A stretch of 4,458 nucleotides of DNA from a virus (taxonomy: Duplodnaviria; Heunggongvirae; Uroviricota; Caudoviricetes): IMG/VR virus record IMGVR_UViG_2690315994_000021. The stretch is one strand, 5' to 3'. The translations under genes were made by a program, and so were the position numbers. Below the pieces are notes generated by a model that saw nothing but the letters and a program-made list of their open reading frames with translations, did no database searches and had not been told where the DNA came from. Of this stretch, positions 618 to 4,420 are shown in pieces (position 1 is the stretch's first letter; the number at the start of each line of letters is the position of its first letter).

Positions 618-671
618 CAATAGCATGACAATAGCAATGGCTATTGGTGTGGTCAATAGCAATTGGTATTG
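618..671 (-). promoter_or_regulatory. Left operator-like cluster with embedded leftward sigma70-like promoter (pL/oL analogue)
   Basis: Heptamer CAATAGC at 618-624, 629-635 and 654-660; inverse GCTATTG at 640-646; GGTATTG at 665-671. These form an 18-bp palindrome CAATAGCAATGGCTATTG (629-646) and an imperfect copy (654-671). On the minus strand, TTGACC (plus 651-656) - 17 bp - TATTGT (plus 628-633) gives a promoter firing leftward from about 620. The same heptamer recurs in the cI-cro intergenic region. Confidence 0.45.
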
Positions 672-938: not shown

Positions 939-1877
939 TTAATTTATCTTTTCAACATTTCCATGAATCAACAAGTCGTAGGCAAGAAATAGTTTCCTAT
1001 ACTGGGTTTTTAAATTGTCAACGTCGCATGTCTTGAATTGAACAAACGCTTCTTTTTTAACATAATCTTCAATCTCCTCTTTGGGGATATTTTTTATGTT
1101 CTTAATGACTATAGACAATTCTTTGTACTTTTTGAACGTTGCATCCTTTATATCTTTGATGTTGGTGTAAATTTTATTTGCATTGATTTTATCTAAGGTG
1201 ATTTTATTGAGCAAGTCGTCTAGTTTTCCGTGGCGTTCAATGCGTTGATTTAGTTTTAACACATATTTAGCTGGCAAACTTAACTCTTTCAAATTACATG
1301 AGGTTATAGTTTTTGAAAATGGAAGTTGTAATGAGTTTACTGAGCCTAATATGAAATCTATGGCTAATTTATTAGATATTTCATTTTTATTAAATAAGTA
1401 ATCTTCAAGATAATTTATTTCTTTAACTTGTGTGAATACATACTTTTTATCGCCTAGAGCAACAACTAAATTTTTTCCTTGTTTAACACTTTCTTCAAGT
1501 CTGTCTAAGTCAGAAGGTGAAACCAATAGAGTATCTAAGTGCCCTTTTTCACCCTCATTAATGATAAGTGTTTTGATGGCTCTTTGATACCTTAAAACAT
1601 CATAAGGTGAGAGCCCTTCATCAACAGCACTGATCTCATCATAGATCTGTTTATAGTTATCTGTTTTAACAGATGTATATGTAATTTGTAGCTGTTGATC
1701 GGTAATCTGTTTTGGTACTACTTCCTGTTCATTCTCTTTATATTCAATCAAAATTATTCTTTCAGCTGATTTTCGACCATCTTCTCTAGGTAGTTGTGAG
1801 GAAAAATCAGAAAGAAGTTTCTTTACATTCCTGTCAGTTAAAGAATATCCAAGAAAAACTATTGGATTTTTAATCAT
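939..1877 (-). CDS. SIR2-family protein, 3' portion: longest start-codon-initiated segment of a longer disrupted gene (frame stays open upstream to 2132)
   Basis: The 312-aa track ORF starts MIKNPIVFLGYSLTDR, which looks like an internal SIR2-like strand and not an N-terminus. Translating the same frame upstream of the ATG gives, with no stop until 2135-2133, ...NINKKAKIIITTNYDAFIKNLL...WSELYKIHGDIKDPH...: a TTNYD motif (2102-2088) and an HG motif (H at 1979-1977). This matches the sirtuin TQNID and catalytic HG motifs. There is no ATG, GTG or TTG in frame between 2132 and 1877, so the track boundary is an artefact of start-codon searching. Confidence 0.75.
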   Translation of the reverse strand: MIKNPIVFLGYSLTDRNVKKLLSDFSSQLPREDGRKSAERIILIEYKENEQEVVPKQITDQQLQITYTSVKTDNYKQIYDEISAVDEGLSPYDVLRYQRAIKTLIINEGEKGHLDTLLVSPSDLDRLEESVKQGKNLVVALGDKKYVFTQVKEINYLEDYLFNKNEISNKLAIDFILGSVNSLQLPFSKTITSCNLKELSLPAKYVLKLNQRIERHGKLDDLLNKITLDKINANKIYTNIKDIKDATFKKYKELSIVIKNIKNIPKEEIEDYVKKEAFVQFKTCDVDNLKTQYRKLFLAYDLLIHGNVEKIN

Positions 1878-2525
1878 GTTAGATAGTATCTTGGCACTAA
1901 TGAGTATAGATTTGTTGTCATATTTTTCGTAATCATCTTTATTTATGATTATTGAGTGTGGATCCTTTATATCACCATGGATTTTGTATAACTCACTCCA
2001 TCCAATAGTATCTTCGAAAAAACCATTATTTCCAATATAGAGTTTTGGAGTTACATTTTGCTCTTGAAGTAAATTTTTTATGAAAGCATCATAATTTGTA
2101 GTGATGATTATCTTGGCCTTTTTATTAATGTTTTAAATGATGCTAATTCATCAAGATTTACATCCTTTCTGATTGTGTTATTAGAAAATCTTTGGCATAT
2201 AGCGTATTTAAATGGTGAAATATCTTCACTAAAAACCCTCTTGGCATCTAGTCCATTTAATTTTAATTTGCCAGTCCTAAACAATAGATTGTAATCATTT
2301 TCAATTTTACTTGCTGCCTCTGTATAAATCTTATGATCGATATCATTATCACTGTTATTTTTATGTGATTCTTTTATTGTTAAAAGATAACTATAGAAAT
2401 CATTTGTGGGATTTGTTATTTTCCAATACTCGTTTAATAGCTCTTCCCACGTTGGGTAGTTCTCTAAATATCTTTTTGAAATGCCTGAGCCAATAAAGAC
2501 TATTGGGTAATTTTTGAATTCAAAA

Positions 2526-2535
2526 TTTTTTTTTT
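2526..2535 (-). repeat. A10 (plus-strand T10) homopolymer spanning codons 3-5 of the SIR2-like gene; frameshift or slippage site
   Basis: Ten consecutive T at plus 2526-2535, read directly. On the coding strand it gives ATG TCA AAA AAA AAA TTT TGA. A 9-A version reads straight into the SIR2 N-terminal domain. Confidence 0.9.
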
Positions 2536-2582
2536 GACATATCCATATACCTTAAGCTCTGCTTGAAACATCCATTCTATAA

Positions 2583-2611
2583 ATTATGAGGATGTCAGCA
2601 TGTCTCACCAA
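2583..2611 (-). promoter_or_regulatory. Possible sigma70-like promoter for the SIR2-like gene within the cI-SIR2 spacer
   Basis: On the minus strand: TTGGTG (plus 2606-2611) - 17 bp - CATAAT (plus 2583-2588), about 40 nt upstream of the ATG at 2540. The -35 is weak. No strong terminator is visible between cI and the SIR2-like gene, so read-through from the cI promoter is also plausible. Confidence 0.2.
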
Positions 2612-2652
2612 AACATCATCTGGTTATCTTGATGAAATCTGTCATTAATAAT

Positions 2653-3345
2653 CTACCCATGTTTTCTATATGTCTGTGGCATGCTCCCAATAACTTTCCC
2701 AAATATAAATACCCGATTCATTTCGTCTTTTTCGATCGGGTCCCATGGTGAGTAGCTCTTGTTATCAGAGATAACCAGCAGCTTATCCTTCATCATTTGC
2801 AGGCGCTTTACATGGGCTGTGTCGTCGTACAGAAACGCATAGATACCATCACCGTCGAAAGATTTAACAGTGATATCAACGAACAGAAGATCACCTGGTT
2901 CGATCGTTCCTGACATGCTGTCACCGCGTACGTTAATGATGCGGATATTTTCTGCCTTCCTGCCATCGAACATGTGACGAGCATCGTCAAACGAGTACTC
3001 AACCGAGCGTAGGACTTCTACAAACTCACGGTTGATGACACCCGGCCCAGCACTGACTTCTATATCAAGAACGTCAATCTTGAAGTATTTGGAATGGTTG
3101 ACAGCAGGCTTCCCTGATTGTTGACCGTCATTTCTCATCGGGCCTATGCCTGATGAGAGCCACTCTGTTCGAACACCCAATGCATTAGCTATTTCAACAA
3201 TTTTTGTTGAGCCGCGTGCGTTGCCGCTTGTCAGTCTCCAGATTGTGGGTTGAGCTACGCCAGACGCCTTTGCAAGAGCGCCTTGAGACATTCCAGATTG
3301 TTCCATCGCTAGGTTTAAGCGATCAGCAAGAGTTTCTTTTTTCAT
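2653..3345 (-). CDS. CI-like prophage repressor: N-terminal XRE-type HTH plus C-terminal LexA/S24 autopeptidase domain
   Basis: The track ORF 2653..3381 starts at a TTG; the likely true start is ATG 3345 (MKKETLADRLNLAMEQSGMSQGALAKASGVAQPTIWRL...), giving 230 aa. The HTH is in the N-terminus. The C-terminal part has VRGDSMSGTIEPGDLLFVD (Ser nucleophile) and HVKRL (Lys), matching the LexA/UmuD/lambda CI Ser-Lys dyad pattern, with a candidate Ala-Gly cleavage site in EVSAGPG. It is divergent from a Cro-like gene. Confidence 0.85.
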   Translation of the reverse strand: MKKETLADRLNLAMEQSGMSQGALAKASGVAQPTIWRLTSGNARGSTKIVEIANALGVRTEWLSSGIGPMRNDGQQSGKPAVNHSKYFKIDVLDIEVSAGPGVINREFVEVLRSVEYSFDDARHMFDGRKAENIRIINVRGDSMSGTIEPGDLLFVDITVKSFDGDGIYAFLYDDTAHVKRLQMMKDKLLVISDNKSYSPWDPIEKDEMNRVFIFGKVIGSMPQTYRKHG

Positions 3346-3354
3346 AAGTTTTAA

Positions 3355-3447
3355 TTTATACGCTTGCGTATTGATGGTCAAAACACGTTTTGCTATTGAT
3401 TGGATTAATACGCATTGCTATTATCCATTCATTGTAATACCAATAGG
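3355..3447. promoter_or_regulatory. Right operator/promoter region: back-to-back divergent promoters for cI (leftward) and cro (rightward) with operator-like heptamers
   Basis: Rightward: TTGATT (3396-3401) - 17 bp - TATTAT (3419-3424), then AGGA (3445-3448) 7 nt before the cro ATG at 3456. Leftward (minus): TTGACC (plus 3376-3381) - 15 bp - TATAAA (plus 3355-3360), ending about 7-10 nt before the cI ATG at 3345, implying a leaderless or near-leaderless cI mRNA as for lambda pRM. Operator-like heptamers: GCTATTG 3392-3398, GCTATTA 3417-3423, CAATAGG 3441-3447. Confidence 0.45.
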
Positions 3448-3455
3448 AATTGATA

Positions 3456-3683
3456 ATGACAAATCAAACCATTCAACTCGCAATCAGTATTACAGGTAGT
3501 CAAAAACGACTGGCAGATCTATGCGGTGTAGCCCAGCCCACTGTTTGGCGTTGGCTACACGGTGGCGGAATTGATGCCCGCTATGTAATGAAAATTGTCT
3601 CAGCCACTGGTGGAAAGATTAAACCAGCAGATATTCGTCCCGACCTTGCACCATTGTTTAACGCGAGTAATTCTGCCGCCTAA
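3456..3683 (+). CDS. Cro-like HTH regulator (YdaS-like family)
   Basis: The track ORF starts at TTG 3450, but ATG 3456 has AGGA at the right spacing. Protein MTNQTIQLAISITGSQKRLADLCGVAQPTVWRWLHGGG...TGGKIKPADIRPDL matches, from memory, the YdaS/Cro-like pattern (ITGSQ, HTH, TGG, DLRPD). It is divergent from the repressor. Stop is TAA at 3681-3683. Confidence 0.8.
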   Translation: MTNQTIQLAISITGSQKRLADLCGVAQPTVWRWLHGGGIDARYVMKIVSATGGKIKPADIRPDLAPLFNASNSAA

Positions 3684-3707
3684 ACTGCGGCGTTAACTGA
3701 TAAGGCA

Positions 3708-4253
3708 ATGACTATGCAACCACTTACATACCAACAGACTAGCGGATTTAGCCCGACTGCGGTGATAAATCGTTCTCAAACAAAACAGGCGCCAGGCCAC
3801 GAAAAAATCCGTGATGCCGTTCGCGCTTGGTCGGCTGCAGATAATCAGGATGTTGTTGCCGCACTCATTGTGAATGAGTATCGGGAGCAGGGCGGCGGCA
3901 CCATCGATTTCCCTGATGATGTCAGCCGTGCACGCCAGAAGCTGTTCCGTTTCCTCGATAACAAATTCGATTCTGAAAAATACCGAAATAACGTGCGTGA
4001 ACTGACCCCGGCAATTCTGGCGGTACTACCGCTGGAATATCGCGGCCACCTGGTTGAGCAGGATAGCTTCATGGCTCGGTTGGCTGAAATGGATAAGGAA
4101 CTCAGTGAGGCAAAGCAGGCGGTCATTCTCAACGCACCACGCCACCAGAAACTGAAGGAAATGAGTGAAGGTATTGTGTCGATGTTTCGTGTGGACCCGG
4201 ATCTGGCTGGTCCATTAATGGCGATGGTTACCACCATGCTGGGGGCAATATGA
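3708..4253 (+). CDS. CII-position regulatory protein, YdaT-like family
   Basis: 181-aa ORF directly after cro (AAGG upstream; alternative ATG at 3714). Motifs EYREQGGG and LTPAILAVLPLEYRGHL resemble what I recall of E. coli Rac YdaT-family proteins. Family assignment is from memory and not verified. Confidence 0.7.
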   Translation: MTMQPLTYQQTSGFSPTAVINRSQTKQAPGHEKIRDAVRAWSAADNQDVVAALIVNEYREQGGGTIDFPDDVSRARQKLFRFLDNKFDSEKYRNNVRELTPAILAVLPLEYRGHLVEQDSFMARLAEMDKELSEAKQAVILNAPRHQKLKEMSEGIVSMFRVDPDLAGPLMAMVTTMLGAI

Positions 4254-4420
4254 CAGGTTCAGAAATGGCGAAAGCCGGTCTGCGGGAACAGAGCCGACTT
4301 TCAGGTGCAAATCGTAACGCACTCATTGCGGAAGGAATTATGGCAAACACTGTGAACCGCCCCGGTTTTCCTGGAGAGTGTTTTATCTGTGAACTCAGGC
4401 TGCCAGATCATCGTTTCTGA
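4250..4420 (+). CDS. Small hypothetical ORF (56 aa), translationally coupled to the upstream gene
   Basis: Its ATG (4250-4252) overlaps the upstream TGA stop (4251-4253) in an ATGA arrangement. Protein MTGSEMAKAGLREQSRLSGANRNALIAEGIMANTVNRPGFPGECFICELRLPDHRF contains a CxxC. It is below the ORF-track size cutoff and I recognise no homology. Confidence 0.3.
   Translation: MTGSEMAKAGLREQSRLSGANRNALIAEGIMANTVNRPGFPGECFICELRLPDHRF

Follow-up and report, generated by a model that had tools for sequence, protein, structure and literature searches.

ATG 3345 is almost certainly the start codon of the CI-like repressor gene in the window (the whole stretch of 4,458 nucleotides analyzed here), and we regard its position as effectively settled within the limits of sequence analysis. 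The maintenance transcript of this gene is probably leaderless or nearly so. In the proposed mechanism, RNA polymerase would start at A3345 of the maintenance promoter, and ribosomes would bind the 5′-terminal AUG directly to yield a 230-aa repressor; the mRNA would begin with AUG and carry no ribosome-binding site, because the predicted transcription start is A3345 itself. The 36 nt upstream of the ATG are non-coding and form the core of the maintenance promoter, comprising a -35 element, a spacer bearing the OR3-like operator, a -10 element, and a 7-nt discriminator.

Predicted promoters and operators of the immunity region

The 4458-base window is a lambdoid immunity region from a prophage of the Bievrevirus / 4A7 / Perceval type. 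Three Escherichia phages, 4A7, Perceval (genus Bievrevirus), and PhiR30_1, matched it at 96–97% identity, and E. coli GE3 and O55:H7 strains matched it perfectly (100%) over stretches of 411 to 1121 bases that surround the start of the repressor gene. Of 5426 complete E. coli genomes, 722 (approximately 13%) carried the repressor-cro junction (query 3150–3560). The E. coli genomes with the repressor included O55:H7 and O157:H7, with the copy in O157:H7 EDL933 or Sakai near 1.78–1.87 Mb. The leftward genes of the window are kil (144–350), a SIR2-family gene (939–2540), and the repressor gene (2653–3345, minus strand; 230 aa, 693 nt), the longest-ORF form of which runs from 3381. An intergenic region of 110 bp separates the repressor gene from a rightward Cro analogue of the YdaS family (3456–3683, plus strand; Pfam YdaS_toxin and RefSeq annotation). 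A CII analogue of the YdaT family (3714–4253, plus strand; Pfam YdaT_toxin, RefSeq CDS of 540 nt) follows, and beyond it lies a rightward replication gene, of which only the 5′ part falls in the window.

The repressor is CI-like, with an N-terminal helix-turn-helix (HTH) domain and a C-terminal Peptidase_S24 domain (Pfam HTH_3/HTH_31 and Peptidase_S24); the scores of 28.6 bits for HTH_3 and 67 bits for Peptidase_S24 both exceed the cut-offs. A99-G100, S143 (in GDSM), and K180 (in VKRL) were invariant in the repressor alignment (A1). We take A99-G100 to be the LexA-type Ala-Gly cleavage site and S143 and K180 to be the Ser/Lys catalytic dyad. By its domains, Ala-Gly site, and dyad, the protein is a predicted member of the LexA/CI-type S24 self-cleaving class.

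A consensus scan of positions 3250–3500 returned two promoter-like sites, TTGACC-17-TAAATT (3381–3353) and the divergent TTGATT-17-TATTAT, where 0.9 ± 1.0 promoter-like matches are expected by chance per 250-bp region on both strands. The first site was the only leftward consensus-type promoter in 2400–4300 and is PRM-like. Its -35 element, TTGACC (3376–3381, minus strand), and its -10 element, TAAATT (3353–3358, minus strand), are separated by a 17-bp spacer, and the -10 element ends 7 nt before the ATG. We examined its conservation in a substitution alignment that comprised 104 distinct sequences of the same immunity type; the genera represented were Escherichia, Salmonella, Klebsiella, Citrobacter, Kluyvera, and Raoultella. 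Both hexamers, including TTGACC, and the spacer were nearly invariant in these sequences, with columns -13 to -8 (the -10 element) invariant, whereas the adjacent linkers and the third codon positions varied freely.

The original prediction had placed the -10 element at a TATAAA just upstream of the ATG. This hexamer is present (3355–3360, minus strand) and overlaps TAAATT, but it was unreported by the scan. It lies 9 nt from the ATG and leaves a spacer of 15 bp rather than 17 bp, and other immunity groups carry TAAATT or TATATT 6 nt before their ATG. We consequently rejected TATAAA as the -10 element in favor of TAAATT with its 17-bp spacer.

The second site is a PR-like promoter with a TG extension (3396–3424, plus strand) and a predicted start near 3431, which would give the cro analogue a 25-nt leader containing AGGA. 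The predicted PRM-like and PR-like starts are 86 bp apart, and the promoters stand back to back. Three operator-like sites of 18 bp each, with a period of exactly 25 bp, overlap the two promoters. An OR3-like operator, found by pattern match (3356–3373; center -19.5 from the ATG), covers the PRM spacer and -10 element and includes the perfect palindrome ATACGC-AA-GCGTAT. A putative OR2-like operator (3381–3398; center -44.5), with a good left half and a weak right half, shares one base, the first, with the PRM -35 element, which it abuts, and overlaps the PR -35 element. An OR1-like operator, also a pattern match (3406–3423; center -69.5), lies over the PR spacer and -10 element. Conservation within the intergenic region was concentrated in the OR blocks, with variable linkers separating them. 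Two OL operators (629–646 and 654–671), 25 bp apart, lie under a PL-like promoter, TTGACC-17-TATTGT (656–628, minus strand); both had 0 mismatches to the operator pattern, for which 0.01 matches were expected by chance. This arrangement of divergent promoters and multiple operators overlapping both is a putative lambda-type switch layout. In the proposed switch, PR would be silenced by repressor on OR1 and OR2, and PRM by repressor on OR3; we infer both the operator occupancy and the autoregulation.

The predicted 5′ end of the maintenance transcript

The A of the ATG (3343–3345, minus strand) is the 8th nucleotide past the -10 element, with T at -1 and A at +1. By our own estimate, a promoter-like match on the right strand has a chance of approximately 0.5% of ending 6–8 nt before a given ATG. 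The region from -20 to -1 formed hardly any duplex with the 3′ end of 16S rRNA at ATG 3345 (-0.1 kcal/mol), in agreement with the claim that this codon has no Shine-Dalgarno (SD) sequence, and none at TTG 3381 (+0.6 kcal/mol). The SD duplex energies of the cro (-4.2), ydaT, kil, and SIR2 genes in the window were between -3.8 and -6.9 kcal/mol. Nucleotides 1–7 of the predicted mRNA, which include the 5′ AUG, were predicted to be unpaired at a level of at least 0.97 in the 45- and 90-nt folds and at least 0.83 at all lengths tried. Leaderless initiation tolerates non-AUG start codons poorly (Brock et al. 2008, cited in PMC8630535). ATG 3345 thus combines the features predicted for a leaderless start, namely an AUG codon, no SD, and an unstructured 5′ end.

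The discriminator between the -10 element and the ATG (3346–3352, minus strand) was 6 or 7 nt long and variable in sequence. Its minor-allele fraction reached 0.54, versus 0.02 or less in the block from -27 to -8 of the 104 sequences. A similar distance was found in relatives of three other immunity types, whose operators differ from those of the window: group C (HK639-like, MKTFAERL...), group D (PhiR5_1-like, MKTTLSERL...), and a C. koseri type (MNKTSFSERL...). In these relatives TAAATT, TATATT, TACATT, or TATGAT precedes the ATG at a distance of exactly 6 nt, the ATG again lacks an SD, and most of the relatives have an in-frame stop 2–8 codons 5′ of that ATG. The -10 element of group D (L195) was identified only by the TAnnnT rule; the scan gave no promoter for this locus because its -35 element is weak. 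A distance of 6–7 nt in four immunity types, with the bases between varying, is expected if the ATG is the transcription start and is otherwise unexplained, although groups A, C, and D are not fully independent in this comparison because their -10 region may stem from a common ancestor.

Group B (MQESTLKTLAD..., mostly Salmonella) has no such -10 element. Its ATG is preceded at 8 nt by GGAGG (-9.5 kcal/mol), and its predicted promoter, TAGACT-17-TAGAAT, would give a 15-nt leader. The occurrence of either a -10 element at 6 nt or a leader with GGAGG is expected if the SD-less genes use a 5′-terminal AUG, and the arrival of the group B leader together with a strong SD suggests that an SD-less internal ATG is insufficient. 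Leaderless expression could be a selectively maintained ancestral state in the enterobacterial lambdoid S24 CI-type repressor family, from which group B was converted; we put this forward tentatively, as a proposal slightly more likely to fail than to hold. If it is true, group B and the leaderless groups form a natural matched pair on the role of leaderless translation in lysogenic maintenance, and possible roles would be a low, noise-limited repressor level or insensitivity to the initiation-factor state.

We consider it unlikely that ATG 3345 is read instead from a leadered mRNA, begun at a nearby, upstream, or CII(YdaT)-dependent start, by internal SD-less initiation with help from the A/U-rich upstream sequence. 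TATAAA could direct a start near 3348 and so produce a 3-nt leader, but its 15-bp spacer compares poorly with the optimal 17 bp of TAAATT. No leftward consensus-type promoter was found upstream of 3381 by the scan, which is blind to activator-dependent promoters, and lambda also makes a leadered cI mRNA from PRE. A CII-type establishment promoter of this kind may add a leadered transcript that uses the same SD-less ATG. Group B shows that one related lineage does use a leader; that lineage, however, acquired a strong SD with it, and the -10-to-ATG distance fixed over four immunity types also argues against a leader on the maintenance transcript.

The leaderless message proposed in the original prediction was therefore supported, as a prediction, by the promoter geometry, the missing SD, the unpaired AUG, the operators, and the conserved -10-to-ATG distance. 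The start may lie at U3346 or further upstream (3346–3348), giving a 1–3-nt leader, because transcription most often starts at the 7th nucleotide past the -10 element and the A of the ATG is the next one. Literature searches turned up no mapped 5′ end, ribosome profiling, or peptide evidence for this repressor, nor anything else on it.

The start codon of the repressor gene

The longest minus-strand ORF of the repressor (3381–2653, 242 aa) opens at a TTG, and its product begins MTINTQAYKLKL-MKKETL; the minus strand around the repressor start reads ...GTTTTGACCATCAATACGCAAGCGTATAAATTAAAACTTATGAAAAAAGAAACT.... ATG 3345 is codon 13 of this ORF. The TTG (3379–3381, minus strand) forms the first three bases, and thus the first half, of the -35 element TTGACC, as had been noted from the sequence originally, and we assign it as a non-start. 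RefSeq starts the repressor at ATG 3345 (WP_000712399.1, from PGAP, and YP_009909469.1), and the curated records of phages 4A7 (RefSeq) and Perceval annotate the same 693-nt form. Extended forms occur in the GenBank records of PhiR30_1 (729 nt), Salfasec13b (726 nt), and PhiR5_1 (756 nt).

The comparison drew on 278 related loci, whose upstream regions comprised 87 distinct sequences. The 230-aa query against genome contigs gave 6 loci, too few alone for substitution statistics, and the first scan of viral contigs gave 80 near-identical loci; the diversity of the set came from scans with divergent homologues and from exact-protein look-ups. An ATG stood at the equivalent position in 276 of the 278 loci, and the two others, SfII (whose helix motif was unmatched) and one truncated locus, were unscored. 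Relatives with other recognition helices also begin at the aligned Met, and M1 was invariant in alignment A1. The Pfam HTH match opens 5 residues past the Met of ATG 3345 and leaves the N-terminal extension outside the HTH domain.

In the window, as in most relatives of the same immunity type, no stop interrupts the frame between the TTG and the ATG. In three loci with the same operators and the TTGACC...TATAAATT promoter (L236, L237, and L274), loss of 1 nt from the discriminator shifts the TTG into another frame, and the frame of the ATG is closed by a stop 2–4 codons 5′ of it. Two further loci, L285 and L287, share the operators and promoter as well; here the frame is closed by a stop 2 codons (L285) and 7 codons (L287) ahead of the ATG. 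No alternative start 5′ of the ATG was found in any of these five loci.

The substitution pattern differed between the two sides of the ATG. In the coding region from +4 to +150 of the 104 sequences, the mean minor-allele fractions at codon positions 1, 2, and 3 were 0.064, 0.027, and 0.292, respectively, and 43 of the 49 third positions varied. The corresponding values from -36 to -8 in the same frame were 0.007, 0.023, and 0.030. These 29 nt, which extend from the TTG through the -10 element, showed no codon periodicity, and all three positions were constrained alike. This uniform constraint indicates that the region from -36 to -8 is a DNA-level regulatory element and not a peptide.

A start at TTG 3381, with a 242-aa repressor made from a transcript begun further upstream, is very improbable on this evidence. 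The open frame, the extended forms in the three GenBank records, and an apparent conservation of the translated extension among long gene calls speak for it. We rejected the conservation of AIAKRVLTINTQAYKLKL in those calls as coding evidence, because all codon positions share it equally and it maps onto the blocks that hold the operators and promoter; it represents operator and promoter DNA read in frame. The TTG moreover has no SD, sits within the -35 hexamer, and lacks a leftward consensus promoter upstream, and the RefSeq start differs from it. The extension shows no excess of third-position substitutions, is absent from other immunity groups or replaced there by unrelated called extensions, and is frameshifted or stop-interrupted in the five same-operator relatives, which brings the TTG start close to refuted. 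The preference for ATG 3345 over the TTG in the original prediction thus agrees with RefSeq, with the frame-broken relatives, and with the absent codon periodicity. Less probable still is an accidental origin of the hexamers, by which AT-rich sequence would resemble a promoter without saying anything about the transcript: approximately 0.9 such matches are expected per 250 bp and a consensus match alone is no evidence of function, but the hexamers and spacer are almost invariant in 104 sequences from several genera, and their spacing from the adjoining, divergent PR-like promoter resembles that in lambda.

GenBank phage records disagree on the start of this repressor, and the comparative evidence fixes it for a repressor that over 700 complete E. 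coli genomes carry. The PhiR30_1, Salfasec13b, and PhiR5_1 records include 11–22 spurious N-terminal residues that correspond to promoter and operator DNA, and some Salmonella records start the repressor 19 residues too late, with the loss of helix 1. The correction is useful for annotation. The result itself is sound but ordinary, since it repeats a known arrangement and changes no concept.

Comparison with known repressor systems

The lambda cI mRNA from PRM is the classic leaderless message, and the cI ATG is the known PRM start. The window resembles lambda in its divergent PRM and PR with three operators between them, its HTH and S24 repressor, and the OR2 site abutting the PRM -35 element. 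Measured from the repressor ATG, the OR3, OR2, and OR1 positions are centered at -19.5, -44.5, and -69.5 in the window, compared with -19, -42, and -66 in lambda. Lambda has TAGATT 6 nt before an SD-less ATG, and the window has TAAATT 7 nt before an SD-less ATG. The likeness to lambda cI suggested at the outset was thus borne out by the operator distances and the -10-to-ATG spacing. An accessory gene lies 3′ of the repressor gene on the same strand, in the place of lambda rexAB. The two systems differ in other respects. The repressor of the window and lambda CI are only distant relatives, and the best 60 of 404 tblastn records included no lambda entry. The operators (18 bp, 25-bp period) are unlike those of lambda in sequence, and the Cro and CII analogues belong to the YdaS and YdaT families, unlike in lambda. 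The -35 element TTGACC is much nearer the consensus than the TAGATA of lambda, and the promoter of the window may therefore depend less on activation.

Leaderless repressor messages have also been reported for prophages with ydaS-ydaT genes. For PaaR2 of the cryptic prophage CP-933P (E. coli O157:H7), the transcript starts at the AUG by 5′ RACE, and N-terminal sequencing gave MQKKE (PMC8630535), compared with the predicted MKKE of the window repressor. The PRM933P region shares with the window a leftward repressor gene, rightward ydaS-ydaT, and equally spaced 18-bp palindromes, with an intergenic region of 97 bp in CP-933P and 110 bp in the window (PMC8630535). PaaR2 itself is small (approximately 15 kDa) and heads a toxin-antitoxin operon, no S24 self-cleavage domain is described in the available part of the source, and its operator consensus, GTTTAGTAA, is unlike that of the window (PMC8630535).

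RacR of the Rac prophage (E. coli K-12) is likewise divergent from ydaS-ydaT, and its strongest promoter, PracR3, gives a leaderless racR transcript according to primer extension and -10 mutagenesis (PMC9638921). RacR has three promoters and nine monomer binding sites, and no S24 domain is described for it in the available part of the source (PMC9638921). The RacR sequence is unrelated to the repressor of the window. In regard to the telomere phage PY54, RACE gave a single leaderless cI mRNA species starting from the prophage-repressor AUG; the cro mRNA of PY54 is leaderless too (PMC4488713), whereas the cro analogue of the window has the predicted leader with AGGA.

The repressor of the window is a well-supported predicted addition to the documented leaderless repressor mRNAs of lambda cI, PaaR2, RacR, and PY54 cI, and would be the fourth or fifth case on this short list. 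Together, these systems suggest that the leaderless repressor arrangement is common among lambdoid switches and is not a peculiarity of lambda.

Operator-like sites and the PL-like promoter

A fourth operator-like site, CAATAGGAATTGATAATG, was found at positions 3441-3458 (also 3435-3452), where it overlaps the Shine-Dalgarno sequence and the ATG of cro. This site lies downstream of the predicted PR start and does not fall into the 25-bp register that the other three share. The sequences CAAAAC-AC-GTTTTG (3379-3392, within the OR2-like site) and ATACGC-AA-GCGTAT (3357-3370, within the OR3-like site) are perfect 6-2-6 palindromes, and both are near-invariant across the relatives. CAAAAC-AC-GTTTTG departs from the half-site consensus of the repressor; the YdaS-type Cro could be the protein that recognises it. 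In the region 628-671, a minus-strand PL-like promoter (TTGACC-17-TATTGT, 656..628) lies beneath two perfect operators. The last base of its -35 element, position 651, is G in the window (TTGACC) and A in the E. coli strains GE3 and DEC5A, which gives TTGACT.

Repressor starts and cro/ydaS among the relatives

In the database, many entries for close homologues of the repressor take as their start a Met that is internal (MSQGALAKASG... or MAGMSQGAL...), and the resulting HTH domain is without its first helix. These entries are P0045-P0068 (Salmonella, 211 aa) and P0077-P0091 (217 aa). At the true start, the gene callers probably detected no Shine-Dalgarno sequence. A related repressor lineage, MQESTLKTLAD... 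(loci L099-L120, positions about 350-403), has half-sites that are similar and of the CAATAGC type. The leaderless arrangement is replaced in this lineage by the Shine-Dalgarno sequence GGAGG and a leader predicted to be 15 nt long.

In the O157:H7 prophage copies, cro/ydaS carries a frameshift annotation and the repressor is intact. The counterpart of window positions 3456-3683 in E. coli O157:H7 MB41-1 (L005, 3307-3529) is 5 bases shorter than the window sequence. A frameshifted cro/ydaS beside an intact repressor would lock the O157:H7 prophage in the repressed state.

The SIR2-family gene and neighbouring genes

Immediately 3' of the repressor lies a SIR2-family gene (939-2540, minus strand), which is likely an anti-phage defence moron, and no terminator-like site was found between the two genes. 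In phage λ, the slot downstream of the repressor is occupied by rexAB, whereas in the window the same slot is taken by the SIR2-family gene. In the window the gene is disrupted at two places, near 2118 and near 2526, by homopolymer indels of one base each, and is either a pseudogene or the product of sequencing error; it is intact (1602-1608 nt) in E. coli GE3, O157:H7 MB41-1, and O55:H7 DEC5A.

In GE3 (L004, 6815-8411), the genes that come after the prophage are ren, emrE, ylcJ, and ybcK. The DLP12 remnant of K-12 has the same gene set and may thus be a relative of this prophage that has decayed and lost the immunity region.
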